Shown piece by piece: positions 35,744 to 64,000 of a DNA stretch of 64,000 nucleotides (within the stretch, counting starts at the first letter, position 1; the number at the start of each line of letters is the position of its first letter). The position numbers and the translations under genes were made by a program. Source of the stretch: Amoebophrya sp. A120 (Eukaryota; Protista; Dinoflagellata); the NCBI GenBank assembly GCA_905178155.1, contig CAJINV010000033.1, positions 85,891-149,890 of the forward strand, read 5' to 3'. A model generated the notes under the pieces. It worked only from the letters and a program-made list of their open reading frames with translations. It had not been told where the DNA came from and ran no database searches.

Positions 35744-36595
35744 TCTGCCACTACTCCCGTACGGGTACTTACCCGCCCCGGCGAGATTACTTAATGATAT
35801 GCAGCTCGTTGGTTCAGACGATGAAGAATTTATAAAAGTTTCTGCTCGTTGATGAAGTGAAGAATAAACGTTTCAGTGGTGTTTCATTTTGTTGTCACTT
35901 TCTCTCGGAAGCATTCTACTCATCCTGAAGGCACTTCACTATGTGTCGTGGTCAACAAGCTGCAAGTCCTCTGACAGCTTTGCGACTGCCTGTTCTTGTG
36001 TCCCGTCTTCAGTTCCTTCTGATCATGTCAAGACACGTTGATTATATGGCAATGAATAGCAATGATCAGTCACGTACTTGTACTTCTGGTGAAATCCCGG
36101 CTCGATGGCACCATGATCCCAGCACTTGTACGCAATGAAGAAAGGACGAGAGAACAAGAGTTGATGTTTCTGGAGTAGCCAGGGAGGAGCGTGCCACTAA
36201 AGATCCCAAACTAAATATGTGAGAGAATGATCTGGTCGGTGGCCAGCATGAAAAAGATGATGCACTATGTTCGCACAAGAATTGTGGGGCGATTCACATT
36301 CACACTGACACCGGGCAAAGATTCTATAAAAATGATGTTATTTTGTTATCTTTGAGTAGCTCCTTCTGCTACTTTTGTAGTTTAGACTCTCTCTAGGATC
36401 ATCAAGATGAAGCATCTTTGGCCGTTGTTTTCAGGTGCATTCCCTGTGGTCGTGACGCTCGGTCCTCGGCGTTTTGCGTGTTGAACAGGTAGTTGCGTTG
36501 TCTGCTCTTGGACACATCACGACTGAGCAGGTCCTCTCCCGCAGCAAGGCCGCGTTCTCGATCGCACGACCAGCACACCGTCGTCGAAATAACAA

Positions 36596-39500
36596 ATGTC
36601 TTCTCCAACGGCGAGTGCCGGGCCCAGCGATGGGGTTCTGTACATGGGAGATGTCATCCTGTTGCGGGTCAAGATCACGGAGAAGCGCATGGGCTACGTT
36701 AGTTGCGACGGGTTCACGAATCCAGAGATGTCCGTGGTTTCTCCGCCGGACATGCAGGCGATCGACGACATTCGGGATTGTTTGTTCAAAGTGGTACGTG
36801 CAGAAGAAGAAGTGCGTTGTAGTTTATTTTTCAATTGATTGCAAAAGATCATCGACGAAGCCGAAGGCTAGTTCCGCCTGAGCAGTCTGTGTGCACTCCT
36901 AAGTACGCCGCCTTACACCGAAACTAATCGATTCCGATTGCAGTTTATCATCTACGGGCAAAAGTTAAAGTATAAACGTGTGAAAAGCTTTTCTCAGGTT
37001 TGCAAGCTCGACTACACGGCCCAGCGCGAGCTTGCGAAGTTACAAAATGAACGGAAGATGGAGGGTGACCCGCTGCGGTCCGCGAGTCGGTTCAGTGCGA
37101 AGGAGAAAAATCTGGACGCGGACATCCGGCGGGCGCAGGGGAAGGTGGAGCTGGAAGCGCAGACGAACCGGGAGAAGGAGAGGTTTGTGCACCCGGTGAC
37201 CTATGGCGACACGATTCAGCTGTTTCACATCAAGTCAGGGAAGTACCTCACCGTTCGCTCGCAGGAGTCGGCCTCGGTGGAAAACCACAACCGACTGGTC
37301 TCCGTGGCCGACGGGAACCAGTACTCCGCATTTCCTATGTCCGGCTTAGCGGGACGAATCGCAACCTGGTGGACCATAAGTAATGTTGTACAGTCGGAAC
37401 TTCTCTTGTACAAAGGGCGAGAGCGCAGACGCAGAACTTGCTTACTTCAACTTCTGCTTGTTGAGATGAAATTTGGCCATGCTAGAATGAAAACAACTCT
37501 CCTTTACTGACGCATTTTGCATGATCGCAATCTCTTCAACATCGTCCTTCTGAGAAGATTCTTCCTCCACCTGAGCCGGGTATATTCCGCGTCCGCAGTT
37601 TTTACAAGCACAAGTACCAGGGCGAACGGGTGAGGTTCAACGAGCAGGTGATTTTTGACGTTCAGAGACTCGGCAAGGAGTGGACGTTGCGCACGGCCGG
37701 GACCGAGTGCGAGACGCCGGACGGCATCCCGTTTTTCGAAATGAACTGTGCGTGCGACCAGGTGACCGGGTACTTTCCCATGCTGTACAGCCGCAATCCG
37801 GACCACCTAAACTACGCGTCCGTCGTGCGCCTCTACTACTGCGGCGCGAATGCCATGGTGGGGGCGAGCTGCCACGATGAGGAGGCCACGAGTACCCTGG
37901 TCTTGGAGAAGGAGAAGGATGTGCAGCAACTGTCCGAGCTGATGACAGGGTCCGGGCTGCTGCAAAACGAGCTGCGCATGAAGGGCAAGGTGATCCCGTC
38001 GGGGGCGAAAACCGACATGACGATGCGGGAAATACGGGAAAAACTCCCAGCGGACGTGGTGTTTCACTGGAAGACCAACGTGAAAACCCCGTATTTGCGG
38101 CCCCTGCCACAACTCGCCTACGACCACGTGGACAATCTGTGGTCGAAGGGCTGCTGGTTGATAGAACAAACCGCAAACCGGTTGGGCGGGGGCGCGGTGG
38201 AGTGGAAAAAACCGATCTGCTTCCGGCACTTGGGCAGCGGCAGATACCTCAGTGTCTCGAACCGGTTCCCGGATGGGGAAGGGAATTTCGGGTAGAAGGA
38301 AAAATGACTTCCACTAGAAGCCAACTCATTTTTTTCAAGTCTGATCGGTCGTCCCTAGGCTAATTGTTTCAATCTGCATGTCGATGAAACTGAAAGCAAA
38401 AGAAACGGATGTTGAGGCATGGTGCAGCTGTTGTATCGCAGCATGATGGAGAAGATACACAAAAGAACTTCAACTTGGCAATCAACAGTGCCTGCATGCT
38501 GAAGCGCGCGGACGCGACGTCTTTCTTTTTTCTCGAACCTATCGAGCCCATCGACGGTGCCAAAGTACCTCTCGGGCGTATCCGCTGCCTGATCGGGTGG
38601 AAGGATGAGTCGACCGGGCAGCAGTACTTTTTGTCTGTCGGCTATCGCAAGAAAAAAACTATGTGAGTGTAAATCTGTGATGCAGAAAGTGCAAAACTGT
38701 TACACTTGTCATGCTGGATCTGCGTCATGCGCTACTTTCATACGTGTTTCCACGTACTAGCTGCGCATGACAGATTTTCCCTGTAATGCAAAGCTAATTT
38801 GTGCTGCTGTTTTTCCGTACACAGTTACACTTACACATTTTTTTTCCTGGATATCGGCGGGCAAAAAGCTTCCCGGCTCTCGGCCGCCGCTACGCTGCGC
38901 AAGCGACAGCTGAACGCCACCCGGGCGCGGGGCGGCCAAGCGGTCAACGAGGGCGAGGGCAGCCAGAGCAGCCGCGACATTTTGTTTCTCAACTCGCGCC
39001 GGGTGCGGGACGCGGTGCAGATTGAGTGCATGGAGGGGAAATCCAAGGATACGGACCCCTATGTCCTGCCGGAGTTGCTCACCTACGTCACCGACATTAA
39101 TCGCTTGTACGTGACCAAGAACTTTTTCAAAACCTCCTGCCGCCGCCTAGCGCAGCTGCGCGACACCTTGAAGCTGTGGCACAAGCAGGGCGGGCCCAAG
39201 GCGAGCAACAGTCCGACGAGCAATCGGCCGGCAGAGCAAAGGCGGACCTCCCGCCGGTTGTCGGACGAAGCTGCGTATCAATCGCAAATTATGGATCTCA
39301 GAGTCTGGTTCTGGAAGGAAACAGAGGTTTTTCCTGCAGCTGTGGTCGCATGAGCATAACCACCCAGAAAGTGAAAGTCGGGTAGGAAGAACAAAGTGGC
39401 CCTAGCATCACAGGTTTTGAGACAAGGAGGTTTTTTCATCTCAATGCCTGCCCCGCATGTCGAGACAGCGACAGCGCTGCTGGTTTCGGTGGCCGGTCTG

Positions 39501-42500
39501 CCGGAAGCGGCAACCTTATGCTGCCCAAGCATGACACTTTTTTGCGTACTAGTCCTCTGAAAAGCGCATCTTCACAACAAGTTTGCAGGTTCTCCCCAGA
39601 ACACGAGAAGACATAGTTGCAGTGCATACGGATCGGGCGGTGGACTTCGAGGCCGTGGTGATTGCGGAGCGGAAAACATACCTGCAAATCGCCCGGGTGG
39701 TCAACGAGTCCATTGCCTTCATGCTGACCGTATCGAATGTAAAAATGTCTGGGTCTGGAAGAATGCAACTTGTCATGCTAAATCTGAAGCATGTAAAAAT
39801 CTGTGTTGCATGATTACCAAAAGTCGTCCAGTTTTGACCAAGTCGGGAGGGAGTTTCTCATGCAGGATAGGCATGAGAGAGATCGCACAGAATCTTTCAT
39901 GCTAGGTCCTGCATTCCAGACCTCATGGCTCATGGGAAATCTGCATGACAAATCGCGCATTCTTCCAGACCCAGGCATTTTTGCATTTGATAGACCAGCG
40001 CGGAGGCTGAGGCATTGCCGGAGAACTTCACCGCGCTGGCCATGGGAATCGCGGGGAGGCGGAAGTGCAACATGATCCGGCAGAAAATCGCCAAAGAGCT
40101 GAAGTTCATTGACGCTTCCGTTTCCATGGAGGAAGCCATCTGGATGCTGGGCGGGTGCAGGTTCATGAAGGGCGTCTCGCGGACAGTAATCGATCTAAAC
40201 CCAAACGCGACCGCCGCGGCAGCGAAGGCGTCAACGGTACTGATAGTGTGTTTGTGAGTAGATACAACTTGCAATATCGAACTGGAATCAGGCAGCTTAG
40301 ATCTTGACGACGACAAATCCAAGTGCGTCCTTCTCCTTCTACCATCTAATTTGTCATGCGAAACCTCCTATGCGAAAGCGAAACCGAATGTGATGCGAAA
40401 CCTCCTATACGAATCCGTCTATCAGACCGGCTCCATGGCGGAGAATGTGGACCTCGCGGACACGCCTTCGCCGGAGAAAGTGAACTGCATGAAGCTGTTG
40501 CTCATCCTGTGGCAAAAGTGCTTCCAGGCAAACCTGCCGGTGGAGGACTACTTTGTGCGCAATGAATGGATGGAGTTGATCAACAGTCTGAACGGGCTGG
40601 GGCTCGGCGCCGCAAGCGTCCTCGGGGTCATGATGGAAACAAACGCAAACTTGGTCCGGAACGCCAAACCCCACGTGGTGCTTCAGTTCGTTGATTTCTT
40701 GAAGCGGCTCGGCCCCGACGCCACCTGGCTAAACTTGCTCCAAGGGTTCTGCAGCTGTCTCGGCGTGCCGATCCAGTGCCAGCAGCAGCTGGTGCTGCAA
40801 TCTGTGTACGATCCGGGGAGTATATGAGAATGCACAACTTCTACCCCTCCTACTCAATTGTCATGCAAAATTACCAAAAGCATATGCGCCCTTTGCCTCT
40901 TGGCGTTGGCCCTTTTTGCATTTACAGATTCATCTGGCAGCCCATACAGAACTAGAACAATACGCAGTGCAGTTGTCATGCAAAACCTTCACTCTTGCCG
41001 AGCCGACGCTACGCAGCTGCTCATGCACCTCGAATGAGGGGGAGGGGGAGTTGTGCACTCTCATAGAGTATTCAGCCGAATACGGAGTGGATTGGGAACA
41101 AAAAGAAACTACTCCTCTCCTGCCGCTATGCATTGCAAAAACATCTTCGCGCTAGATAGACAAAAATTGCTTCAGAATATTAAAAGTGTGCTAAGTTGTT
41201 AGTAGACTCGTTGAATGTTGCCATCTGTCCTCACTACAACGCGCGACAGATTATATTTTGCAAAGGATAGTCGCCTCGGTTCCGTCGTGTGCCCCTTTCC
41301 GGAAACCCTCCGTGCCCAGTACACCGGCGGCGAAGCGAGTGCAGCGATCTACGGACACACCCTCCTCGCCTCGGGGATCCGCGATTTGTTTGTCTCCTGG
41401 CACAGCTCCGACGGGCAGCTGTGGCAGTTGGGGAACACGGAAAAGTTCGGGCTGTACTTCTCGCCGAAACAGCTGGGCCTGAAAACCTTCACGTTTCCGG
41501 ACGACAGCGACCGGCGGCAATGGGTGAATTTGGCGGACATCATGTGGGTTTTGGATCCCAACGCCTGTTTTAACGTGGTCTTCGACACCAGGGAGCGGTG
41601 GCCGGACCGACAGAAAAAAATGTCGAAGTCGGAGAAGGCCAGCATGCAGGCGAAGCAGGTGCTCGCGAACTTCTTCATCGCGCAGCTGCAGATGCTGACG
41701 GAGATGTGTCTGGATCGGCAGGTGAACGCGATCGGGGCGATCGAGAAGGAGTACTTCTACGAACTGGTGGTGTGCGGCGTGTGGCACCCCTTCCTCCCCG
41801 AAATCGTAAGGTCGAGGTTCGCGGCGCTGACCGACAATTTGTGGATCGACCGGCACCCGCACTACGAAATGGAGGTGCCGAACTTCATCCGGAAGTACTT
41901 TGGAACCACCGCCATGCAGATGATCACCGCGGGCACCGCGCAGCACCAGTCGGAACTGCCGAAGTTTGAGTTGATAACCCCGCCCGTGACCTCGAAACAG
42001 GGCGAGGCGGAGCAGGCCGGTAACATGAAGGTGAACCCGTTTTACGGGATTACCAGCTCGCAGAAGTTCCAACTTCTGCTGGGCTACATCCAGTACCACA
42101 TGGAAAAGATGGAGGGGAAGATGTGCATCACGCAGAAGGGTCTGAACCAATACACGGGTGCGTTGATGGAGATGGGCCTGCACTTGCTACGCTTCGGCTT
42201 TATCCCCACCTGGGACCAGCTCTGCGACATCCTGGAACCCATCCTGAAGTGCATGGACGGCCGGACCGACTGGCTGAAGCAAGCTTATGGCGTTCTCAAA
42301 CGTTACATTCTCAACTGTTACATGATTTGTCATGCAAAATGACCATGACCCGCCAGACGATCAAGCTGCTGCGCATGACAAATTCTCGGAGGTCTAAACA
42401 GCACTATAATCCGCACGAAACCTGTAATGCAAGACGCGCAAGGTTCTCCCTCTCACCTGTGCTAGTCTTGCGTTACAAATTCATGTAACAGTTGAAAACG

Positions 42501-45500
42501 CCATAAAGCTACCGACCAGCTCACTCCCCGGTCCGCGTTTGTGCTGGACGTGGGGCCTATCAAATGTAAAAATGTCTGGGTCTGGAAGAATGCCAGACTT
42601 GTCATGCATATTTTGCATGACTCGGGATGTCTGTAATGCGTGATCTGGCATCACATATTTCTAGAGGCCTTCCTGATGCCTATCCCGCATGACAAATGCC
42701 CTCCCCGCGTAGCACAAACTGGGCGCCTCTTCCTGGTCATGCAATACAGATTTTTTTAGAGTCCAAAGTTAGCATCACAAGTTGCATTCTTCCAGACCCA
42801 GACACTTTTGCATTTGATAGGGCCGAACGGCCTAGACCCGCACGGTGCAGCGCTGGCAAGCGCGGAACAGGGCGGTGGCGGGGGCATTTCGCCGAGCTCG
42901 ACGATCGTGTCGGGGTCGAGCGCCACGAAGCTCGCGGCGGAGCCGCTGCTGAGCGGGTTTTCGACGAAAAGCGGGGGGTTCTGCGACGTGAGTGTGCAGG
43001 AAGACGTCGAGATGCGCGTGACGAGGAGAAGGCCAATACATTCCCCGCGGTGGGCGGGAACAAGAATGTATAGTGCCGAATAGATGCTGTAGCGTTTGTC
43101 GCAATAGTACAAGTGCCGATGCGAAGGCGTCTACGTCTTTGCAACACAAACTTTTTGTTGATTCGCAGTACTAACTTACGTAGAGAAAATCCAACTTCAA
43201 TATGCTTCATTTCTTGTATACCATTTGCATTTGTTTCACCTCGCCGCTCCTTACAAATTGAAATTTCCCCTGCCTAGTCCTTCATGGAAGATTTTCTGCC
43301 CGACGAGGATCACTTCCAAAGAATGTAAACGTACTTACACGATGGATCCAGGTTTCCCCCCATCCCCACCGTCGCAGAAGACGAACTAGTTCGATGGCAC
43401 GACAGCCCAGAGAACGCCGAACTGATGGAATGTAAGTCGTACATGTGCGAACTCTGCCTCCGTGTACACGACCTGGCGATCGATCAGATCCTAGGCCGCA
43501 TCGTCCCTCTCTTCAAACAGTGGGAGGCCACCACCGCGGGCGGTCGGCAGGGCTACACTGGCGCGCGGTTCAGTGAGCAACAGGGCGCTCTATGGATCGT
43601 GAATGTATCGTACTACAGTACGGAGACGAACTGCAAAACTTAGCATGAAAAATGGGATTTGGAATGCGGATCTTCCACCTTAGGAGTGGAGAGGGATTTG
43701 TATTGATGCATGATTGCAATTACTAGAGACTCCTACGAATATTACGATACTTTTGCAAACCATACTCTCCCGTTTCCATTGATTTGGTCGAGCAGGTATT
43801 GCTACCCATTGCAAATGTGCCTGGGTCCCCCGGAATTTTGCCATGCGAAAAGTAGATGAAGATGAATGACAAATGACTGACTGGCTCCAGTACGCAGCTA
43901 AGCATGAGAAGTTTCACAGCGGTTTTACTTTTACAACGGTAGTGCGAAGTGCGCATGAGAATAAAACACGTTTTTTCGACGTGACAGAGACGTGCCGCTC
44001 TGCGGCAACATGCATCACAGAGTTCAGAACGGGTTCGAGTATATTATACAATAATGCGTGTCCAGCTCCAGAATGTGAATGAGGACAAGTCATATTTGCA
44101 ATGCATAGATGCGGCAAATCACGCTGAAGAAGTTCGGGTTCGATACGTATATGGACGGCGGCAACTTCACGGTCTATCAAAATGAAAAATCCCCCCACCC
44201 CACATCAAAACGAAGTTTGTTATGTTGGATTTGCGTACACAAATCAGATTTGTCTTGCTTGGAGAGAGGACTGCAGGCCCCTGCCATGCCTGAGTAGAGA
44301 GGTTTTGGCCTAGGCGCTTAGCATGAGAAACGTCTATGCTGTAGCCAACAGCATGACAAACCGCCTGCATAATGCGGCAGAGCCTGTGGAGTTGTCTTCT
44401 TGCAACACAGACGTGCGCTGTGGTCTCAAATCAGCAAGAGGAAGTTCGGCGTGTCGGGTGAGGGACCCCCGACGTCTGGCCTACGGATATCATGGGGAAC
44501 TAAGGCTCAAATCAGCAAGACAAATTTTCGGAAACATAGCGCTTCGATATGGGGAGGGGGGATTTTCACTCTCGATACGGTCATGCTACTGGACTTGCTG
44601 ATGTACGAAAATGCGAACTTGTTTCAGTTGGTGTTGGAATTGATCTTTAAAACGGGGTTCCGCACGAAGGAGGCCTTGAAAAATATGGACAGCGTCTTCC
44701 TGGTGCTCAACACGGACGAGGACAGGAGAATAGCGACGATGCGGCGGGACATCGTCACTCTCACGAACGGCTTTCACACGTTCGAATCCTGGGGGCAGTC
44801 GGACTCCTTTTCCCAGCACGATTCCGAGAAGGCGAAAAACATGAACGCGATTTGCCGCCGCTTGCGGCACAACTGCTCGGTCGGCGGCCAGGACACGGGC
44901 GACACGAGTGTGCCGGACGAAACGGCGCAGCGGAACCTACTGGACCTCGGTCTGATGCGCGCGATTTCCGCCGCGATAAGCATCCCGATCACGGAGTTTC
45001 AAGGCGAGGGTTTGAACGTGTTGAAAGAGATGATGAAGGAGGTCACGGGGCTCCTGACCATGTTTGTCTACGACAACAAGCGAAACCAGCATGCGGCTTT
45101 CGAGCACCTCCCCACACTGCGCATATCAAATGCAAAAATGTGTGGGTCTGGAAACTTGTGATGCTGGGTGGCGTATCATGAGGAGGCCACAAGTGCTGGC
45201 TCAGCATGGCAAATTTTTGAGCTTCCAGGTGTTGCCTATTCTGCATGAAAGGGACACGCCGTTGGGTCGTCCGCCATCGTGATAGGATCGCCGTGTCTGA
45301 TCATTCGACCCCCTGTATGCTTTTTAGCGCGCAACCGGTCACAGAAGTAAGTCTTAGAGCAAGTTTGTAAGACTAACCCATCAAGGCAATACTGGAGCTC
45401 CACCGTGCTCGCGGGCTTGGATGGTAAGGCAGGTCAGCCACACATAGCGCCCACTGGCTGTAGCCATGCGTAAGCAATCGATAGCAGTTTTGCAGGTGCA

Positions 45501-48500
45501 GCCGGGTGGTAGTTAGGAAGTGGGCCGGGTCCCCACGACCTAGGGGCATCGGCAGAGGCTAAATGTGTTCTAGCGCCCAGGTATTGGCAGAGGCTAAATC
45601 TGTTCTAACGCCAACCCGCCAGGAGTTAAATGGTACTACTACTACTACTGCATGACAGAAAAATGGTGCTCTTGGGTAACGTGCATGACTACAGATTCGA
45701 GAGTCATGCCAGACAAGCATGACAAACATGCATTCTCCCAGACCCAGACATTTTTGCAGTTGATAGCGCACCTGGTTTAACTACGGCGTCGGCATGGCAA
45801 ACCCCATCGCAAGTATTTTCCGCAACAACCGGGAGCTGTGCGAGAAGGTCCCCGTGGCTCTGATCTACGACTTCGCTTTCGCGCTGCAGGCCCGGTCCCG
45901 CGGCTTCTTGCCGCACCAGCTGGCGTTTTTCCACTCGATCCTGGTGGTGGGGGACCGAAAAATCAACCGAAACGCGGATATTCTAGCGGAAATCCTGTCG
46001 AAGCCAAGGTTTGATAAGGTTCTCCACTGCTTGTTCGACTCCGACGGGCGGAAGAAACGCCGGAGCATGCTGCGGAAGTTTGCGAGTTTGGAGGAATTGT
46101 CGAAGCCCGAGCCGTATGAATTGCAAAAGTATCGTACTCGTATAAACGCATTACAAATTTCCTCAGCATGTTGATAAATAAAATTTGTAAAAATGCGGAT
46201 ATACCTAAGGAAAAAGATTTGTAATGCATGGGCGCAATTACTACGAGTACGAGACTTTTGCACAGGATAAGCCGTTCCGAAAGTGGAACGGCGACGACGC
46301 CGAGCTTGTCTACTCCGTGAAGTCGGTCGAGCTTCTCAGCTTGATTTGCCTCGGCCAGGGTGACGGCGGACGGTCCAGCTTCGTGGTGAACATGATTTCG
46401 CCAGACTCACTGACGGTCCAGTACATGGAAGTCCATGAGACCGTCTACATTACCACCGAGCCGGTCGGCGGCCAGCCCTCGATCTCCAAGGCCGCACAGG
46501 AGATGGCCCGGGTGTTACAGGGCGCGATGCTGGACCTGATGTCCAACTGCTACTACGAGACGGAAGTAAGGGACGACCGGTTCTGGAATTCGGATATTCA
46601 CTTGTATCTACTCGAACTGCTCACCACGGAAATTGACAAAATCTTCAACGTATCAACTGCAACTATGTCTGGGGCTGGGAGATTGCGAGACTTGTCATGC
46701 TAGTCTGGCATGACTCTGAGCTCTCTATTACGTGGCCGCGAAGAGCTCCGCTTGCCCGTCATGCAAAAACGCAGTCTCTCGTGCGGAGTACGCAACTCAG
46801 AACCACAGCAAAACTTGTCATGCTGGGCAGCGCATTACAGTGCTTTCACTGTACAACTCCCTTCCCTGCAACACAGGTTTCCAGACCCAGACATGTTTGC
46901 ATTTGATACAACGTGAGTGCAAAGAACCGCCCGGTCACGGACAGCGAGGAGATTTTCGTCCACAGGGTGCTCCGCGCGCTAAACAACTACGTGCAGTGGG
47001 CGATGAGCATCACGGAGAAGCACGGCACCACGCACAAGGGCATCCTGGATTTGTGCTATCCTGAGTAAAAACGTCCCCACACCAGAGTTGTCATGCAGAT
47101 TTGCAATGACAGGAACATTTGTAATGCGCATCGCCAGGAGAGGCATTTTTAGTCGTGTTTTGGAATTTGTAATGTTGTAAACAGGATGAGCAGATGGATT
47201 TCTGATGCAGCTGGCCATGCGAACCTGCACTAAACTACGGACTGCAACTTGTGACGCGTGACCCTCAAAAGTTCTAGGTTTGTGTTGCAAAATCCCCATC
47301 TTGACTAGGTTTGTGTTGCAAAATCCGCCGCATTTTTTTAAAAAATTGCCGGTTGCAGCGGCATCTAACTCGAAGTTTGACAAAGCACTTTATAAGAAAA
47401 AGCACTTCGTAAAGAAAAGCACTTCGTAAAGAAAAGCACTTCGTAAAACAAAACGTAGTCATGTAAAGCAGCACGGCAGATACTTCAACATACTAGCAGT
47501 GTGCGGGGGGGGCCAATGTGGTCCCCCCCACGCGCTGCGCCTATAAATAAAACACGCCAGGGAATTTTCTTTTTTTTCCAGCAGAGGCTGGCTGTGGGAC
47601 TTGGGGCAATGCCGGGGATTAGAAATGCAAATATGATGGCAGTGCGTTTCTACTCTTAAGTATCCTGCTTCAAACATGTTTTATTTTTTTTTGGCCTTTT
47701 GTCACGCTCTTTGTCATTGTCTTTGGATTAGTACCGCGTCACACAATTGCACAAGTATTTAGAAAACATCATGGAAAATGGCACGCGGAGTCGGAAACAT
47801 TGAAAACGACGCCGAGCTCGACGGANNNNNNNNNNNNNNNNNNNNNNNNNNNNNNNNNNNNNNNNNNNNNNNNNNNNNNNNNNNNNNNNNNNNNNNNNNN
47901 NNNNNNNNNNNNNNNNNNNNNNNNNTGTACGAAAATGCGAACTTGTTTCAGTTGGTGTTGGAATTGATCTTTAAAACGGGGTTCCGCACGAAGGAGGCCT
48001 TGAAAAATATGGACAGCGTCTTCCTGGTGCTCAACACGGACGAGGACAGGAGAATAGCGACGATGCGGCGGGACATCGTCACTCTCACGAACGGCTTTCA
48101 CACGTTCGAATCCTGGGGGCAGTCGGACTCCTTTTCCCAGCACGATTCCGAGAAGGCGAAAAACATGAACGCGATTTGCCGCCGCTTGCGGCACAACTGC
48201 TCGGTCGGCGGCCAGGACACGGGCGACACGAGTGTGCCGGACGAAACGGCGCAGCGGAACCTACTGGACCTCGGTCTGATGCGCGCGATTTCCGCCGCGA
48301 TAAGCATCCCGATCACGGAGTTTCAAGGCGAGGGTTTGAACGTGTTGAAAGAGATGATGAAGGAGGTCACGGGGCTCCTGACCATGTTTGTCTACGACAA
48401 CAAGCGAAACCAGCATGCGGCTTTCGAGCACCTCCCCACACTGCGCATATCAAATGCAAAAATGTGTGGGTCTGGAAACTTGTGATGCTGGGTGGCGTAT

Positions 48501-51500
48501 CATGAGGAGGCCACAAGTGCTGGCTCAGCATGGCAAATTTTTGAGCTTCCAGGTGTTGCCTATTCTGCATGAAAGGGACACGCCGTTGGGTCGTCCGCCA
48601 TCGTGATAGGATCGCCGTGTCTGATCATTCGACCCCCTGTATGCTTTTTAGCGCGCAACCGGTCACAGAAGTAAGTCTTAGAGCAAGTTTGTAAGACTAA
48701 CCCATCAAGGCAATACTGGAGCTCCACCGTGCTCGCGGGCTTGGATGGTAAGGCAGGTCAGCCACACATAGCGCCCACTGGCTGTAGCCATGCGTAAGCA
48801 ATCGATAGCAGTTTTGCAGGTGCAGCCGGGTGGTAGTTAGGAAGTGGGCCGGGTCCCCACGACCTAGGGGCATCGGCAGAGGCTAAATGTGTTCTAGCGC
48901 CCAGGTATTGGCAGAGGCTAAATCTGTTCTAACGCCAACCCGCCAGGAGTTAAATGGTACTACTACTACTACTGCATGACAGAAAAATGGTGCTCTTGGG
49001 TAACGTGCATGACTACAGATTCGAGAGTCATGCCAGACAAGCATGACAAACATGCATTCTCCCAGACCCAGACATTTTTGCAGTTGATAGCGCACCTGGT
49101 TTAACTACGGCGTCGGCATGGCAAACCCCATCGCAAGTATTTTCCGCAACAACCGGGAGCTGTGCGAGAAGGTCCCCGTGGCTCTGATCTACGACTTCGC
49201 TTTCGCGCTGCAGGCCCGGTCCCGCGGCTTCTTGCCGCACCAGCTGGCGTTTTTCCACTCGATCCTGGTGGTGGGGGACCGAAAAATCAACCGAAACGCG
49301 GATATTCTAGCGGAAATCCTGTCGAAGCCAAGGTTTGATAAGGTTCTCCACTGCTTGTTCGACTCCGACGGGCGGAAGAAACGCCGGAGCATGCTGCGGA
49401 AGTTTGCGAGTTTGGAGGAATTGTCGAAGCCCGAGCCGTATGAATTGCAAAAGTATCGTACTCGTATAAACGCATTACAAATTTCCTCAGCATGTTGATA
49501 AATAAAATTTGTAAAAATGCGGATATACCTAAGGAAAAAGATTTGTAATGCATGGGCGCAATTACTACGAGTACGAGACTTTTGCACAGGATAAGCCGTT
49601 CCGAAAGTGGAACGGCGACGACGCCGAGCTTGTCTACTCCGTGAAGTCGGTCGAGCTTCTCAGCTTGATTTGCCTCGGCCAGGGTGACGGCGGACGGTCC
49701 AGCTTCGTGGTGAACATGATTTCGCCAGACTCACTGACGGTCCAGTACATGGAAGTCCATGAGACCGTCTACATTACCACCGAGCCGGTCGGCGGCCAGC
49801 CCTCGATCTCCAAGGCCGCACAGGAGATGGCCCGGGTGTTACAGGGCGCGATGCTGGACCTGATGTCCAACTGCTACTACGAGACGGAAGTAAGGGACGA
49901 CCGGTTCTGGAATTCGGATATTCACTTGTATCTACTCGAACTGCTCACCACGGAAATTGACAAAATCTTCAACGTATCAACTGCAACTATGTCTGGGGCT
50001 GGGAGATTGCGAGACTTGTCATGCTAGTCTGGCATGACTCTGAGCTCTCTATTACGTGGCCGCGAAGAGCTCCGCTTGCCCGTCATGCAAAAACGCAGTC
50101 TCTCGTGCGGAGTACGCAACTCAGAACCACAGCAAAACTTGTCATGCTGGGCAGCGCATTACAGTGCTTTCACTGTACAACTCCCTTCCCTGCAACACAG
50201 GTTTCCAGACCCAGACATGTTTGCATTTGATACAACGTGAGTGCAAAGAACCGCCCGGTCACGGACAGCGAGGAGATTTTCGTCCACAGGGTGCTCCGCG
50301 CGCTAAACAACTACGTGCAGTGGGCGATGAGCATCACGGAGAAGCACGGCACCACGCACAAGGGCATCCTGGATTTGTGCTATCCTGAGTAAAAACGTCC
50401 CCACACCAGAGTTGTCATGCAGATTTGCAATGACAGGAACATTTGTAATGCGCATCGCCAGGAGAGGCATTTTTAGTCGTGTTTTGGAATTTGTAATGTT
50501 GTAAACAGGATGAGCAGATGGATTTCTGATGCAGCTGGCCATGCGAACCTGCACTAAACTACGGACTGCAACTTGTGACGCGTGACCCTCAAAAGTTCTA
50601 GGTTTGTGTTGCAAAATCCCCATCTTGACTAGGTTTGTGTTGCAAAATCCGCCGCATTTTTTTAAAAAATTGCCGGTTGCAGCGGCATCTAACTCGAAGT
50701 TTGACAAAGCACTTTATAAGAAAAAGCACTTCGTAAAGAAAAGCACTTCGTAAAGAAAAGCACTTCGTAAAACAAAACGTAGTCATGTAAAGCAGCACGG
50801 CAGATACTTCAACATACTAGCAGTGTGCGGGGGGGGCCAATGTGGTCCCCCCCACGCGCTGCGCCTATAAATAAAACACGCCAGGGAATTTTCTTTTTTT
50901 TCCAGCAGAGGCTGGCTGTGGGACTTGGGGCAATGCCGGGGATTAGAAATGCAAATATGATGGCAGTGCGTTTCTACTCTTAAGTATCCTGCTTCAAACA
51001 TGTTTTATTTTTTTTTGGCCTTTTGTCACGCTCTTTGTCATTGTCTTTGGATTAGTACCGCGTCACACAATTGCACAAGTATTTAGAAAACATCATGGAA
51101 AATGGCACGCGGAGTCGGAAACATTGAAAACGACGCCGAGCTCGACGGAGCCGCATGAAGGGCGGCGGGGGGTTGGAAGATCTGCGCGCGTTGTCGGGGC
51201 CACAGAAAGAGGAAGACCAGGCCGCGGGGCATACGCACGCGGGGGAGGAGGGGGAAAACGGAGGCGAAACGAGAACAAGGGGCGCAGTACGAAAACGGAT
51301 CGAGAACCAACATGCTGGAGCAGGGGACAAGAGCGGAAAAGTAAGAAATCGGGAAAAAAAAGCCGTATACCTGCGCAATTCCTTACATGTGAATAACATG
51401 GTGGGCGGGAGGGGTTCTTCACATTTTTGGAAACGCCCACCGCCCCGACTAGAATAACTGAATGATGAAAAAATTGGGGGCAGGGCAAAAAAAAAATCCC

Positions 51501-54500
51501 CATCTTGACTCTGGTGTGGGGATGTTTTTACTCAGGATTTGTGCAGGGGCCGGATGAGCGGGCTGCTGAAGCAGATTCAGAACCGGGAGTTGCCCATCAG
51601 CAAGGACGTGTTTCTGATCGAGAACAAGCGGCTAATCGCCTGGATCGAGGGTTCCGACGCGAAAGACCAACTTCGCATTCCGTCCGGGGTCATCACCGGC
51701 ACGGCGAACAAGGGCCAGCAGGGCAACAGGAAGTCCTCCAGCTCCTCCTCCTCCGACAGTCATCATGGCGACCTGAAGCACAGTCGCGGGCGGTACACGC
51801 GGTTTCTGTCGCAGTTGAAGCACTCGCCACTGGTGAAGCACGAACTGCAGCGGGAATCGGACCTCTTGATCGCGAAGATGATTTCCATCGACCAGTACAC
51901 CGATCCGACCAACGCGCAGTTTCAGTCGGCGAAAAAGCTGTCCATGGCCACGGGGCAGCCGATCGGGTGCGACTACCGCCGGATCAAGATCAAACTCGAA
52001 GATTTGGTCGACCGCATGGTGCGCCACTGCATGCAGATCATGGGCGAGATTAGTGGCATGCCGACGATCTTGCGAGTGTACGAGCTGCTAAATTTGATCA
52101 TCGACTACTGTGATATTAGTTCGGGCAGTACTACTACGAACGCCATGTACACCCTGGTCGAGTGTCAAACCATTTTCACGAAAGCCGGCGTGGTGCGGCT
52201 GATCATCGAGACCTTGATGCTCAAGCCGGACGCACACATCACGCAGAAAGCGCTTTCCTTATGGCGTTCTCAAACGTTACATTCTCGACTTGTACATGAA
52301 ATCTGTCATGCAAGAATGGCAAGAGTGAAAGGGAAAAGATCGGCCCTTTTGCATTACAGGTTTGGAGCAGATTATAATGGTATCTAGCGCGTCGAGAAGT
52401 TGTCATGCGGAGAAGGCTTGATCGTGTGCAGAGCGATAGTATTTTTGCATGACAAATCATGTAACAGTTGAGAATGTAACATTTGAGAACGCCATACTCC
52501 TTGGGGATTTCCATGCTGCGGCCGAACAACGAAACCGTGCAGCAGGCCTTCACCTATCACAGGAAAAAAGTGTATACAGTTACACATTTGTTGGAGTTTC
52601 TGCATCACAGAGTGGCTCGTCATGGCAAAGAAAACCTGTAATGTGCAGACTATAAGGGAAAACACGAATGAAATGAGATAGGCAAGCATGTCCTGCATGA
52701 CAGAGGTTGTCTGTCTTGCTTGTCTCCCATTGGAGTGTGTAACTGTAACACTTTTTTCCCACGATATCACCGAGGTGTTCTACAGTACGGACGATTCCGG
52801 ACTCTGGTCGGTCTTCTGCACGATTTACGACCAAATTCTGAACAACTTGAAACCCGTCCGGACGCTGAAGAAGGTGCAGCGGAAGTACGAGCAGAAGCGG
52901 GCCCAGGTTCGCAAGGAGCGGCCGGACTTGGCCGCGCAATTGGACGAGGTGTCTGACTCGGCCTTGACCAGCGAAGAGCAAGAGTATTTGCAAATCTGGT
53001 CCGATATCCTACCGAAAAAAGCATAATGAAACCATGTTGATTTCTTGATGTGAAGATGCAAATCGAAGTCGACTCATGCTGAAAATTTACCACGTGCAGC
53101 ATGCCATGTGTGTGCGCTCCCGCCTCATGGCAAACCCGCTTCCTGTGTCGTGCAACTACGATCTATATTTTCGCATGACTTTCACATCAAGTCGAAGTTG
53201 TCTTCTGCGCCGTTTTTCGGTGTGATCTCTGAGCAGGTCGAGAGCTGCTGCAAGTGCATTGAGTTCCAGCAGAAACTGTCCGAGGGGCACAACCTAACCA
53301 TGCAGAACTACACCTACAACCAGCACGACAACTCGGCTATTACAATGAAAAATGCCCCCACCCCCGAACTTGGGAGCATTTGTATTGCAAACCTTTCCAA
53401 ATGAAACATTCGCCCTCTTGCATCTATCAGCATCACAGATCTCCAATCGTGAATAGCAAAAATTTGTATTGCAAAATACCCCAGCAAGAGCGGCGCTTGT
53501 CGTGCAAGCGATGCGATAGATACACACCTAGGCTCTGCATCAGAAAGATTCATACTCCTTTCATGCATGACAAAAAGTTTTCATTTGGAAACTTCGCATC
53601 ACAAATTTTTGCAATTTCAGGGTTGGGGGGCACTTTTCGCTGTAATATCGGCGTCAGTGAATTTTGTGGAAAAAACTGTGGACTTATTTGTGAAATTGAC
53701 CAAGTCCCGGGAAATTGTGGACGACCTAGACGAAGAAGAGCTAATATGCATTGCGAACACCAATTATATCCCTGGATGTCTGGAAGGTTGCAACTTGTCA
53801 TGCTAAGTCTTGGATGATCATGCAAAAGTCTGTGTTGCATGATTACCAAAAGTTGTTCACTTTTGACCAGGTTAAGAGGCAGTTTCTCATGCAGGATAGG
53901 CCTGATAGAGATCTCACTCTCACAGCATTGGTCATGTTAGGCGCTGGCGCATTCCAGCCCTCATGGGTCATGGAAAACTGGCATCATAACTCGTGCATTC
54001 TTCCAAACTACCCGCCAGACATATTTTTTGCATTTGATAGCTAGCGCTCGCCTGCAACAGCCTGGATCTGATCATCGAAGTCTTGCAAGGGCCGTGCGCG
54101 AGGAACCAGGTGTACGTGTCTGTGTCCGGGCTGGTGGAGCAAATCAACAAAATTCTCCGCTGGCCCTTCGCGAACATCGTCGATTTGAACGACGTATGAT
54201 CCTGTGCAAAAGTATCGTACTCGTACTGTAATTGCAGTAGTTATGCAGGACAAATCTCTTACTCTTTCTCGAGGCAAATCGGCATTACATAATGCTGAGG
54301 TAATTTCATATTCATTTGTATTGCAATTTACGCTAGTCGCGCGATACTCTTGTATCAATGCATACGACGGCGATCAGTACCCGGACAGCGTGCGCGAGCT
54401 GAAGTACAAGTGCTGTCTCTGTTTGAACTGTCTGCTGGAACTTCGTCCGGACACAGAAGTTATCCACTGGAAGAACCATGTCTGGGTCTGGAAACTCGTA

Positions 54501-57500
54501 CTGCTGGGTTTGGAATATTAGTGTATCATGCTCTCTAGTAAAAATGCACAGCCAAGCATGTTGAGAAATATCATCTGCGCTGCTTTTTAGTGTTGCGTTT
54601 TCCGCGTGACGGACTGCGTTTTTGCGTGGCAGTACATACATAGATACAAAAGGGTCTGCTCGTCTTCTTGGACACGCATTGTCACAAAGAACAACTCTTC
54701 AGTCATGGCAAAAGACAAGCCTGAAGACCACAAACCTTCGTATCCTTCCAGACCCGGTGGACATGATTGCGATGCATAGAAGTGCACCGAAATATCATCC
54801 ACCGCGTGGACATTTCCACCTTTCAAAACCGAGTCATTTTTGCGCACCGCTATTTCTTGTCCGAGGTGCTGAACTGCGGACCCACAATATCCTGAAGAAA
54901 AACGTCCCCACACCAGCGTCAAGATGGAAAATCTGCTAGACAAATCAGCCAGCTTTGGTTGTTTCGCATGACAGGTCTATCCTCGTAGTGTAGTCGTGTT
55001 TAGGTAGTTTACCAGCGTCACAGATCTAGCATATCGTGCTGGTTATAGCATCATAAATTCCAAAACACGACTAGGGAATGCGAGTGCCTCTCATGGCGCT
55101 CCGCATGAGAAACTTTTTTGGCGTGCAGATTTGCATCACAACTCCGGGGTGGCGGTGGGGACGTTTTATCTCAGAATACACAAATCTAGAGGCCTTCGAC
55201 GAGCCGGACACTAAACTGAAGCTCCCCAATATCGCAAGAAATGCGTGTTACAGTTACACATTGTGTTGCAGGCAGAGCGAGACAGACAAGCTCTGTCATG
55301 CCGGGTATGCATAGGAGCGTTGTTTCATACGCGTTTTCATTCCCGTAGGAGTCACAACAAATGTGTAACTGTAACACTTTTTTCGTGTGATACCCAATAA
55401 GTCGCCACAGTTGGTGGTGGAAAACTTTACGAATGATTTAGGCATTGCAGGAGCAACAGTATCTTCTGATATTAGTAGCAATTGCTAGAAGTGCTCGTGG
55501 TCCTCACAAAAATACGAGAAATAGAACTTGCATGCAATCATGTTGTTGACGTTTGGAAAATGGTCATGTAGGAATATAATTGCAGTTGCTACTATGAATT
55601 AAGTAGGTGCATGAAAAATACTTTTGCAGAGGATATGGTCAGTTGCAAGACTATTTCGGCTATGGATTGTAAAAATGTCTGGGTCTGGAAGATTGTCAGA
55701 TTTGTCATGCAGCTTTTCCATGACCCACGAGGTCTGGAATGCAGGGCCTAGCATGACAGATTCTATGCGATCTCTCTCATGCCTACCCTGCATGAGAAAC
55801 TCCCTCCCGACTTGGTCAAAACTGGGCCACTTTTGGTAATCATGCAACACTGATTTTTGCATGCTTCAGATTTAGCATGACAAGTTGCATTCTTCCAGAC
55901 CCACACACTTTCACATTTGATATCGGCGAGGCCTGGGAGCTGATCATGGTGATGAACCAATTGTCTGAAGCGGACGAGTATGCACTGCAAAAATGTCGGG
56001 GTCTGGAAGGATGGAACTTGTAATGCTTATTCTGGATCGTGCAAAAATCTGTGTTGCATGAATGCCAAAAGTTGTCCACTTTTGACCAAGTTGAGAGGAA
56101 GTCTCTCATGCAGGATAGGCATGATAGGGATCTCACAGGATCTGTCATGCTAGGTCCTGCATTCCAGACGATGCAGCTCATGGAAAATATGCATGACAAG
56201 TCTCACAATCTTCCAGACCCAGACATTTTCGCATTTGATAACGAGGACTTCAAAAAGGCCGCAAGACCAAACTTCGCGCTGGCCGAGAAGCAGTTTGGCC
56301 CACTGGACTTCGCCAACGACAGCGAGCGGCAAACCGCGGAAAACGCCCGGACGTACGTATCGCGAGGGAAAATCCTCCCTTCCCATATCAAGATGGAAAT
56401 CTGTGATGCAGATTTTTGGTCACAATGCTATAAGGGCAATAAAGTTGCGGACTGTAGTGCTGGGTGGTGTGGGAAAGCCTTGCATATTCAGCATGACAGG
56501 TGGCAGCTGGAATTGGGACACAGCATGACAAATTAACTGCAAGCGAAGCCACAGCTGCGGCTGTTGGCCTTCTAGCAATACAAGTCGATTTGTGTTGTAC
56601 TCAAATACAGCACGATAAATTCGTTTTCGATGTTGGGAGCAGGGCGGATTTTTCTTCTTGATAGTGCGCGAAGAAGTTTGTGTTGGCGCACGAGTTTTTC
56701 TCGCGGTGGATTAAATCGATTGAAATCATGGTGGACGGAAACATTTTTGACGTGTGGTTCTATGCATTTTTGCAAAAGTGCAATATAGTATCCGATACTC
56801 GGTGTATAAAATAAAGTTGCGGTCGTGCATGTAGTGATAAGTCGAACTTCATCGTCCCACCTGAAGATCTAGAAGCATTGCATTTTTTTCTTGAAATTTT
56901 TTTGCACGCTATTCCTTTTTATTATAGTTCTCCGATACTTTAACTTTTGCAATGCATATACTCCGCATGCCAGTGATTTGCGATTTTGTGTTGGGCAGTG
57001 CGAAAAGGGACATTGTGAACAAAATCAACTTCTCGTCGCCAGAAGAAAAAGCGGCCGAGTTCGTGGAAATGAGCGAAGCGATCTTCGCACAGGTACTTAT
57101 TCCACAAATACTCCATACTTTCTAGAAGCACTACTACTTAAACGACGAGGCAACACTATTTCATTTATCTTGCCACCAGCACGAAAATCTGACCAATGGT
57201 GTTTATTCATGCGCTAGTACAACGAACTCCTACTTCAACTACGTAGAAGCAAAAATGCTCGCACGTGATGAATTATTTTTTTAAAATAGCGCTGCAAAAG
57301 AAGAAGAACAACGTAAGTACTATCTCTCATCTACCTCTACACAGACGGAGCACACTCGTGCGCTTTCGAAGTGGGAGTGGCCGATGGCGTTGTTGGTTCC
57401 AGGGCCGGCGAAGCGGCCGTTCAACTTTTTTCTGAAGAACGATTCGCAGAACTTGATGCGAATATCGGAGTACACGCTCTACATCGCAGTAGTGTTAAAT

Positions 57501-60500
57501 TTGATCCTGGGAAACAACATGTACCTTGCTGACGTGAACGATGTGCAGGGAGATTTGCACCACCCCATCTACCCCATCCTCCACGCCGACGCCTATTGGT
57601 CCGTGATGGCAATCGCTTGGTTCTACCAGGTGCTCTATCACATGCAAATATGTTGTCTGGCTCTGGGAGGTGGTCCTCTGGGCAAAGCGGCTTACTTTTG
57701 ATGTAGCGCATGAACGCACTCTTACAAGTTTTAGTTTATTTTTCGGTCACCTCGTCATGGAGAATTCATTCGCATGCAGCAAGCAAAGAAGTTGTTTGTT
57801 ACCTCGTGGTCCCAGCACGACAAAAAAACTGGTCATTCCTATTCATGCAACAGGATTACTAAAGAAGATTTTGGGGTTAAAATTTAGTACATTGATTCCG
57901 CAAGATCACACATGACATCTATCAGCATCCAGACCCACCAGACATGTTTGCAATGTATATTCGAATGCTGATTACCAGCTTTATTTCCATCTGCCTCTAC
58001 TCCCCTCTGGACCTGCGCAAATTTGAGGAAGAAACGAAAGTCGGCAAAAACGCGAGCTTTTTTGAGTACGTGAAGTCGACCAGGCCACTCGATTATCCAC
58101 TGCAATAGAACAAATATGGTCTTCATCAAGTTGTCTGGAAAATGACAACTGAGCTTGTCTTTGTCATGGTAAATGTGAACCGTGCATCGAAGTAAATCTG
58201 TGTTGCGTCAGCGGCAAATGCTACCCAATTTTCCTCGCCAAGCAAAGGGCGAACTTTCATCAATATGGAAAAATGGGTGTTTTCAAGCTCCGTTACGCAA
58301 TCTTTTGTGACGCAGTTGTAGCTGCTTCCTCTGGTGTTTTTTTACAACCTTTCTATCTTCGTCAACTTCACGAGAAGATTCGATTGATAAATGACTAATT
58401 CCAGAACAGCACCATCCAAGTTTCAATGCATATCGAAACCCTGTTGGCGGTGCTCACTCTGATCGCCGCGGTATACTGCTTTTCCATTCTCTACAAGATG
58501 CACTGGCTATCCTACAGAAAAAAGCGGTCAGGGCATATTTGCGACGAAAAAATAAGTTAAGACAGAGAAATCAAATCACTCTGTTTAAATTCATCTGTGC
58601 TGGGCGCTCCGCGTGCTGTTTAAATTACAGCATACAAAGGACATGTTGCAAGAGGGATTGGTTCTTTTGCGTCTTTATTTTTGCATTACATACAAGTACC
58701 TGCTTTTTTTTCCGTGTGACACTGGCTGGCCTCCGTGATTGCGGTTTTCTTTCTGTGCGGGTTCTGGGACGACATTTGGCAGAAGCCGGAGGGGCACCGC
58801 CGAAACCACCGGTGTCCAAACAACTACTGGGCGCATCTGATTCGGACGGTCGCCTATGCACCGCACATATGTCTGGGTCTGGAAAGGACAAGAAGTGAAC
58901 TTCTCATGCGCATTCCACAACACACACAAATCTCTCATGCATAGGCAGCAAAAGTTAAAGTTGCCCACTTTCTGTCAGGAAATTGGGGGATTGTCATGCG
59001 GATTAGGAATTGTAGAATCTTCTCGATACCTGTGAAGATGCTAGGGCCTCCATGCCCGACCTTCTGTGTCATCCAAAAACAGCATGACAAAAATCTGCAC
59101 CCTTCCAGACCGAGACATATTTGCATTTGATATCGCCATCGCCGGGGAAATATGCATTGCAAAAGTATCGTACTAGTATAGATTGCATCACAAATTTTTT
59201 CAAGAAGAGAAATGGAATTTGTAATGCTGATTTAGCTAAAAAGGGATATTTGTCATGCATGATCGCAATTACTACGAGTACGATACTTTTGCACAGGATA
59301 GGAAAGAAGACCAATCTGGCGCCGCGTCGGACTGTCCATCATTTGTTGGCTGGGCATCTTTATGAATTGCAACAAAAGTACCGTAGTTTAAGTATCTTAA
59401 TTGCAGCGCTGCCTGGAATTGGAAACTCAAATTTTTCATCAGGCAGCTTACAACTACGTAGTAATCTATTCTATTGAAATCAAAGTACTTACTCTTAGTG
59501 CGGTACTTGTGTAAAAATGCATAATCTTTGATGCGTGGTATTTCTTTTCCTTTCTGCTCCTGGACACGATGTTTCAGTACCCCATGCTGGAAAACGGTAT
59601 CGAAGCGGAAAAAAAGCTCACCGCACACGACCCCGAGGACCTCGACTGGTGGCCTTGCATGACAAGAAAACAGGTTACTACTTCTTGCCACGTTCAGCAT
59701 TACAAGTTCCAATGCATACAAACCTGGCTTCTATCGAAGTGGATGAACAAGTTTGTGATGCGCGACTCTGCTTATTGATGTCGTTCTCGTTTGTAGATCC
59801 ACAACATTCCACCAGGTTTGTACAACTACTCCAACGCCAACGTCGTGCGCGGAAAAGAAATTCGAATTGCATAACCTTGTTGAAAGCGGTGATGATACCG
59901 ATAAAATCGCTGGGGCTGACCTTTCTACTTGGAATGATCATCATGTACACTTACGCGTTTGTGGGATTTTACTACTTCCGCCCGGATTTCTATCGCACGA
60001 AATACTTGCGGTCCCAGTCTCAACTTGTTGTAACAAGAACAACTTCGATAATTGTCGATTTTTTTTGTCCTCGAAGACGCATTAAATTTGTCTCCATTGA
60101 ACTTCCCTTCACTGCTAAAATGGGCGGTGTTGCGTCGTTCAAGATGCCTGGCTCTCAATGCAATCCAGTGCAGACAATTTACCTTCAGGAAACTTAGACA
60201 GTTCGTTAGCAGTTCCTGGCTCGCCTTGGCAGCTATTACAGTGCCGAAGAAGCTTGCTCCACATTGTCTTCCTGATGCGCCATGTCGAGCATGGCAGAAT
60301 CTGTTATGCTGGACATGGCGGAAGAAAGCCAAGCATAGGTGGCTTTCGTGCGTTTTTTCTTTTGCTTTTGATGCATCAGAGTTTTTACTTTATATGAATG
60401 TGAATCGGTATGTAGCTGAAATTCCAATCTTCAAAAGGCCATCTACTGAGACTGAGACATTTTTTTTTTCTTGCGATATCCCTGAGGGCGCCTGCACAAA

Positions 60501-63771: not shown

Positions 63772-64000
63772 TATGCATTGCAAATATCAATCTGGGTCTG
63801 GAAGATTGCCGGGTTTGTCATGCCTATTTTGCATAACCCATGACGTCTGGAGTAATGCATGCCCTTGCGGCACAGATTTTTTTTAGAGGGCTTCGTGATA
63901 CCTCTAGGGCATGAGAAATAATGCCATCCCCGCGTAAAGCACCATCTGGACTCTTCTTGGTGGTTAGCAACAGCACAATTTTTTTTAGGATCCAAAGACA
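63772..64000. mobile_element. Introner, family A (42558-type interior), truncated by the window end
   Basis: TATGCATTGCAAAT..CTGGGTCTGGAAG left TIR; interior similar to 42558-42819. Confidence 0.8.

Follow-up and report, generated by a model that had tools for sequence, protein, structure and literature searches.

Introners of Amoebophrya sp. A120 are removed in either orientation from likely-RNA contigs, possibly by a relaxed spliceosome that reads signals in their mirror-image ends

We analyzed a window of 64,000 nucleotides (nt) from the dinoflagellate Amoebophrya sp. A120 (contig CAJINV010000033.1, positions 85,891 to 149,890), with emphasis on a gene for a channel resembling the inositol trisphosphate (IP3) receptor, whose model is interrupted by 40 short elements of the introner type. 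Forward and reverse copies of three element families are absent from the same contigs, which likely represent RNA, and the cuts all fit a single register relative to the element ends. We hypothesize that a U2-type spliceosome with relaxed requirements takes the elements out by recognizing directional signals in their mirror-image ends, a reading to which we give a probability of roughly 0.55. Each end mirrors the other, so that a flipped copy offers the same signals.

The elements start with TAT and end with ATA, and on either side lies a 5-bp direct repeat whose sequence is free. They are mini-transposons with 5-bp target duplications, matching the published introners of Amoebophrya A120. Their terminal inverted repeats (TIRs), constant-length duplication, many copies and lack of coding capacity are those of TIR DNA transposons that are non-autonomous (MITEs, miniature inverted-repeat transposable elements).

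An earlier note on this DNA had proposed that the element at 55661–55922 is the reverse complement of the one at 39731–39992, and that two further families, F and B, also occur in both directions. We compared the copies by self-BLAST of the window and by realigning the interiors of 56 elements with 45 nt cut off on either side, which kept the inverted repeats from creating the interior match. Both analyses bore out the first pair. Positions 39731–39993 matched 55922–55660 on the minus strand (90.5% over 263 nt, expect value 4e-100), and the trimmed interiors of 39731 and 55661 aligned only in reverse, with a score of 284 compared to 18 forward; the maximum in 400 shuffled pairs was 24. On the same strand, 39731 was matched by 12321 (90.9%) and 55979 (84.9%). 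In the window this family, A, has forward copies at 12321, 39731, 53745 and 55979 and reverse copies at 42558 and 55661; the copies at 53745 and 42558 are additions to those named earlier. The trimmed interiors likewise upheld the other flips. Family F copies 42286 and 52260 are opposite (87 versus 18), and family B copies 2289 and 50381 are co-oriented (165 versus 15), with 35322 flipped relative to both (124 and 110) and 54888 flipped more weakly (59 versus about 20; for the comparison with 50381, 59 versus 23). In a further family, 52555–52766 is flipped relative to 55230–55392 (45 versus 19). That both orientations occur in one gene holds for 39731, 42286, 50381, 52260, 54888, 55661 and 55979, but not for 2289, 12321 and 35322, which lie in three other plus-strand genes. 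The same spurious peptide on opposite strands, which had also been pointed out, is real; it simply translates the same element DNA. The features are as follows.

36593..61897, plus strand: IP3 receptor-like channel gene; 3017-codon model without a located start codon, whose introns comprise 40 of the TAT...ATA type and 7 of the GT-AG type
2289..2567, plus strand: family B element in the SDA1 gene
12321..12582, plus strand: forward family A copy within another gene, likely that of an amino-acid transporter
35322..35615, minus strand: family B element, flipped, in a DnaJ-domain gene
39731..39992, plus strand: family A element, forward; duplication 4/5; removal suggested by the reading frame only
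42286..42505, minus strand: family F element, opposite to 52260; removal suggested by the frame
42558..42819, minus strand: family A element, reverse; removal suggested by the frame
50381..51539, plus strand: family B element with a nested insert of ~870 nt; removed as element plus 5
52260..52496, plus strand: family F element; removed as element plus 5, joint in 4/4 runs
52555..52766, plus strand: element of the further family, flipped relative to 55230–55392; both removed
53745..54039, plus strand: family A element, forward, with a decayed 5' end; removed as element plus 5
54888..55178, minus strand: family B element, flipped relative to 50381; removed as element plus 5
55439..55635, no strand assigned: decayed element that begins with TAG and has a weak inverted repeat; some contigs lack it and others keep it
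55661..55922, minus strand: family A element, reverse; duplication TCGGC; removed as 267 nt
55979..56240, plus strand: family A element, forward; duplication ACGAG; removed as 267 nt
59598..59873, no strand assigned: element whose mismatched duplication leaves -1/+4 as the one possible cut; ends GT..CT
59991..60478, no strand assigned: second element with mismatched duplication fixing the cut at -1/+4; ends CT..CC

Removal was followed in contigs of four runs (X1–X4) from one study and two samples, for which RNA status is likely, based on a guessed label together with their behavior. They cover the region from 47926 on; 39731, 42286 and 42558 lie before it. The forward copy 55979 was skipped as 267 nt in all four runs (joint 55973 to 56241). 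The reverse copy 55661 was skipped in X4, by a joint from 55437 to 55923 with 16 letters of a small exon between, and matching loose ends were observed in X1, X2 and X3. In X4 the skips of 55661, 55979 and 53745 lie in what is apparently one contig of 7402 nt. The elements at 53745, 52260, 50381, 54888, 52555 and 55230 were skipped in every run. Removal occurs in either orientation, in three families and in the same likely-RNA contigs, and in that sense, as occurrence rather than efficiency, the strand-independent removal proposed in the earlier note stands. Contig cover was higher inside 55661 than inside 55979, which short matches from other copies could explain, and we used this difference neither way. 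In the raw-read runs X9 and X10, 1 and 285 reads were placed, none on exons; the X10 reads fell on repeats.

Elements would also be missing if the contigs were DNA of a strain or allele without the insertions, with no splicing at all, and a guessed RNA label in runs from a single study leaves room for this. We nonetheless regard it as very improbable. Contigs of the same kind skip the GT-AG intron at 60535–60778, and the contigs show zero letter differences from the window at 99%. Contigs of X1, X2 and X3 keep the decayed element at 55439 and are without 55661; the decayed element is a natural case of weak splicing. Retained elements would bring stops into the frame of the gene: this was the case for single retention of each of the 37 elements tested (the last three of the 40 being outside the test), with 39731, for example, placing a stop at 39811. 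Runs X5–X7, from another study, hold 0.53–0.74 of words compared to 0.35–0.39. Over joints outside the list analyzed below, contig spans followed the gene model (625 predicted and 625 seen; 233 versus 228+5).

Among the joints listed we analyzed 22, comprising 21 over elements and 1 over a GT-AG intron. A repeat-to-repeat joint, four repeat joints and two two-intron skips were left out, one of these skips, over 55661, being entered as its component joint 55655 to 55923. In all 21 element joints, the element plus five bases was removed. A cut 1 base before TAT and 4 bases after ATA (-1/+4) is the sole register that fits 21 of 21, the next best fitting 19, and the two joints with mismatched duplications (59598 and 59991) fix it exactly, with ends GT..CT and CT..CC. 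The published variety of splice sites is likely a result of sliding within the 5-bp duplication. The earlier note had recognized that its proposal would be refuted if each orientation had ordinary GT-AG sites and a branch point of its own. This explanation is hardly credible for the elements studied here, as neither GT-AG nor GC-AG is possible at any slide in the 21 element joints, and the 6 possible cuts of 55661 and of 55979 each include no GT-AG. A single copy, 39731, offers an in-frame GT...AG alternative (39730–39993, 264 nt).

From the flips the earlier note had concluded that the interior cannot be the source of directional signals and that recognition probably depends on the symmetric stem. 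The first part is sustained in that the signals lie in the ends. The step to the stem is not: with the two ends mirroring each other, a linear signal is present whichever way the element faces, so that directional signals are compatible with the flips. The tests favored linear signals polarized along the transcript. Both the cut (-1/+4) and the conservation of the six terminal bases are asymmetric. To a stem or a transposase it should make no difference which member of a terminal pair is altered. Among the 56 window elements, the set that suggested the rule, all 6 terminal deviations spare the opening T, the A behind it and the first A of the closing ATA, which are intron bases U+2, A+3 and A-7; 4 of the 6 are in copies whose removal was seen in the likely-RNA contigs. 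We then considered an outside set of 200 elements from 130 loci of another assembly, found blind to three terminal bases, and set aside 49 whose strand call was weak and 1 whose ends were unrelated. In the remaining 150, the deviations spare the same bases in 7 of 7 cases (one-sided chance (1/2)^7, about 0.008), and under the -1/+4 register U+2, A+3 and A-7 are invariant in 56/56 window and 150/150 outside elements. That the conserved end bases follow the direction of transcription suggests that they are likely hidden splice signals rather than parts of a plain hairpin.

The most direct rival is that the paired terminal stem is itself the signal, with cuts made at fixed staggered distances from the stem base by a nuclease and a ligase outside the spliceosome, or by a machine of its own like the one proposed for euglenid nonconventional introns. 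Most copies do have inverted repeats of ~20–50 bp, the three terminal pairs are intact in 53 to 55 of the 56 window elements, the junction bases are free, and the decayed element at 55439 is kept in contigs of 3 of the 4 runs. A hairpin model was also drawn by Farhat 2021 (PMC7789003), in the accessible parts of which U1 is given as not found. However, inverted repeats are expected from transposition alone, and exact removal was observed for copies with predicted end-pair probabilities of 0.1 or less (53745, at 0.04, and 54461, 58508 and 59598), including 59598 with its unambiguous cut. Within the ends, pairing is ~90% or more at positions 1–3 and at most of 11–25, and 56–73% at positions 4, 5, 7 and 10; pairs 4–7 are frequently broken (56–85% paired in the outside-assembly elements). 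Selected RNA pairing predicts more G-U than A-C on the transcribed strand, and no such excess was found (62:54 in window elements, 91:94 in the 150 outside elements). The sense strand was the more stably folded in 35 of 55, by a mean of 2 kcal/mol. Finally, which base of a terminal pair had changed followed the direction of transcription in 7 of 7 cases. We consider the stem as signal unlikely, though an explanation of real weight.

We return to a relaxed spliceosome, whose proposed steps are conditional. The left end would act as a donor of the form N|UA, which keeps the UA seen in ordinary GUA donors of this host and leaves the first base open; 6 of the 7 modeled GT-AG introns of the IP3 receptor-like gene begin GTA. 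Branching would take place at the first A of the closing ATA (A-7, 7 bases ahead of the cut), and distance from this A, not an AG, would position the 3' cut. The 1+4 geometry would take out exactly one copy of the duplication and restore the coding sequence. The long hairpin likely helps to hold the ends together, perhaps in place of U1, and is probably not the ruler. In its full form, the proposal is of a spliceosome that needs neither a first G nor a last AG, with TAT...ATA supplying donor and branch site, a counted 3' cut, and any insertion a perfect intron; we put this forward tentatively, at somewhat less than even odds. As the 1+4 ruler equals the 5-bp duplication, insertion at any sequence and in either direction would yield a perfect intron from the start. 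According to the parts of PMC7789003 that concern splicing, A120 has U2, U4, U5 and U6, and of 89 spliceosome proteins only 6 are missing.

Several points weigh against this proposal. The first and last intron bases are unconstrained, and the GT(GC)-AG ends of U2-type introns occur in none of the element joints. Free first and last intron bases are poorly tolerated by standard second-step chemistry. Bases ahead of A-7 agree with the YTRAY branch consensus in 5 of 6 family A copies, and in 0 of 5 family F and B copies shown. There is no preference for a donor-side G at +5 (23:27 outside, 14:8 in the window, p 0.29). The asymmetry amounts to 7 events only, in elements with strand taken from a codon model and splicing not shown. 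Within the 49 dropped elements, 2 deviations fit the rule and one element, L067 (margin 1.5), would break it. The folding predictions that speak against the stem are equilibrium models, and the decayed element at 55439 has a changed +4 base and a weak stem, and so fits a role of the stem too. The same base requirements could also come from a protein endonuclease that acts asymmetrically. The relevant parts of PMC7789003 give U1 as undetected in Amoebophrya.

Alternatively, the element might be marked, on RNA or DNA, by a protein such as a domesticated transposase or a substitute for U1 that attaches to the terminal A/T-run region or to an internal 9-nt motif and delivers the spliceosome, with the ends only setting the register. 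The motif TGT[CAG]ATGC is strand-balanced and enriched inside elements (15,181 nt of element sequence hold 52 forward copies and 53 reverse ones, compared to 7 and 2 in 45,495 nt outside), so the interior is not free of signals, and positions 11–14 are A-rich at both ends across families. Transposase binding sites that take no part in splicing would, however, be expected to form such repeats, and the number of motifs per copy varies from 1 to 5. We think a protein adaptor unlikely, a little more so than the stem as signal.

To count orientation relative to transcription on a larger scale, as the earlier note had recommended, a scan with family A ends was made of another, related assembly, in which 130 loci were found with copies up to 95% like those of the window. 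Host strand was called with a codon model that was correct for 36/36 window elements at a margin of at least 3 and for 39/40 overall, all true cases being on the plus strand; the 36/36 refers to the model used for the 150-element set, in whose training one block stood in the wrong frame, whereas the orientation count used corrected training. Among 91 full family A copies the duplication matched at 4 or 5 bases in 84, and the strand was called in 61. Of these 61, 30 face as 39731 does and 31 the opposite way, a count from sequence only, in which splicing plays no part and no bias is apparent.

Additional variations were noted in the elements themselves. End variants such as TATGCATTG track the element's own left end and not transcription, and their recurrence across families hints at exchange of ends between elements; no preference for TATG at the transcript 5' end was found. 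Nested inserts are present in two elements (50631–51500 and about 45250–45660, for element totals of 1159 and 642 nt). The 1159-nt element was still removed exactly, and reads of run X10, absent from exons, match part of its insert at 90–99%. The element at 21979–22204 has 6-bp flanks that are reverse complements rather than a direct repeat, which lengthens the stem; a -1/+4 cut gives a good frame there, and this case would discriminate a stem ruler from linear signals. A further family A-like copy, at 63772–64000, is truncated by the window end. Rfam gave no match. No cognate transposase was seen in the window, in which no search was aimed at one. A 5-bp duplication is typical of Copia-type integrases, and a TIR element with Copia-like coding sequence, described for A120 in part of PMC12130899, is a possible mobilizer of the elements.

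The IP3 receptor-like gene has one stop-free frame after -1/+4 removal of its elements, in a model whose seven GT-AG introns were picked so as to join frames. In Pfam, Ins145_P3_rec and MIR scored above the cut-off and RIH and Ion_trans below it; a protein search with one exon found no relative. A possible GT-AG intron of 27 nt at 43325–43351 would remove an in-frame stop, and both it and the join at 42988–43351 that includes it are model only. Micro-exons of 13 nt (59137–59149) and 20 nt (55640–55659) between adjoining elements were kept in the contigs. Within the gene, 44602–47825 and 47926–51149 are 3224 bases that are 100% identical and flank 100 N. This 3.2-kb repeat is most likely an assembly duplicate, because contigs traverse one copy only, and element copies there were therefore counted once.

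The elements themselves are already published. In the parts of Farhat 2021 (PMC7789003) on A120 introners, TAT-starting inverted repeats, direct repeats of 3–5 nt, a hairpin model and variable sites are described, and the A120 families are listed as TIR DNA elements with mixed sites in tables of Gozashti 2025 (PMC12130899). From what these two sources give, our elements share with A120 introners non-canonical ends, a length of about 240 nt, tens of copies per gene and co-oriented genes, as well as TAT followed by seven loose bases and then three or more A (our 56 elements), an inverted repeat of 8–20 nt or more and repeated families. Direct repeats at the borders are common to both (5 bp in the Fig. 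S19 legend of PMC7789003 and 5 bp here), as are non-canonical splice sites (RNA-supported there, in likely-RNA contigs here). In the published passages, sites are called variable relative to the hairpin and direction of insertion is not discussed, whereas we observed one register and both directions, and end conservation that follows transcription is a feature of the present elements. The mentions of orientation in passages of PMC7789003 concern gene order, and our two element end motifs were not found in the supplements of PMC12130899.

Insertion in both directions is known for canonical introners. Opposite-orientation matches were allowed in the search described in sections of Gozashti 2022 (PMC9860276), and the introners of Huff 2016 were inserted in both orientations, as summarized in an excerpt of Girardini 2023 (PMC10228655). 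The introners of Micromonas pusilla and Aureococcus anophagefferens (excerpts of PMC10228655 and PMC11282704) are likewise non-autonomous TIR transposons that duplicate their target and become introns in both orientations. However, their ends are canonical, the element supplying one of them and the duplication the other, while neither end is canonical here, and the Micromonas duplication is 3 nt rather than 5 bp. The MITE-derived introns of Fritillaria borealis (excerpts of PMC11282704 and PMC13326754) share the TIR, duplication and non-GT-AG ends and are removed by a modified spliceosome, which makes them the nearest precedent for the mechanism we propose; they favor particular ends (AG-AC, AG-AT) and a particular target, in contrast to the free junction bases and target of our elements. 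Euglenid nonconventional introns (excerpts of PMC11282704) have paired ends near the junctions and duplication-like repeats in common with the elements. They differ in having CAG at +4 to +6 and CTG at -8 to -6, compared to N-TAT and ATA-NNNN here, and a junction base preference, compared to near-uniform flanking exon bases here, and they are excised as circles. Amoebophrya does not appear in the available passages of PMC12621601 and PMC13326754. For these elements, we found no statement in the literature of both-way removal, the -1/+4 register or polarized conservation, in a search that lay outside subscription papers and the supplement figures Farhat S19–S25, which possibly show the register. 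Both-way removal and the rule are, to that extent, not found in print.

More than 60% of Amoebophrya introns are without GT-AG, and the passages on removal in PMC7789003 and PMC11282704 leave its mechanism open. Together, both-way removal, a fixed register and polarized ends give sharp predictions: a lariat at A-7, and loss of splicing on change of U+2, A+3 or A-7. Linear signals also predict that changes in the pairing partners of these three bases are tolerated. The -1/+4 rule would fix intron borders in annotation. If true, our hypothesis shows how far spliceosome chemistry can drop its terminal-base rules and explains how this genome tolerates tens of thousands of insertions into exons.

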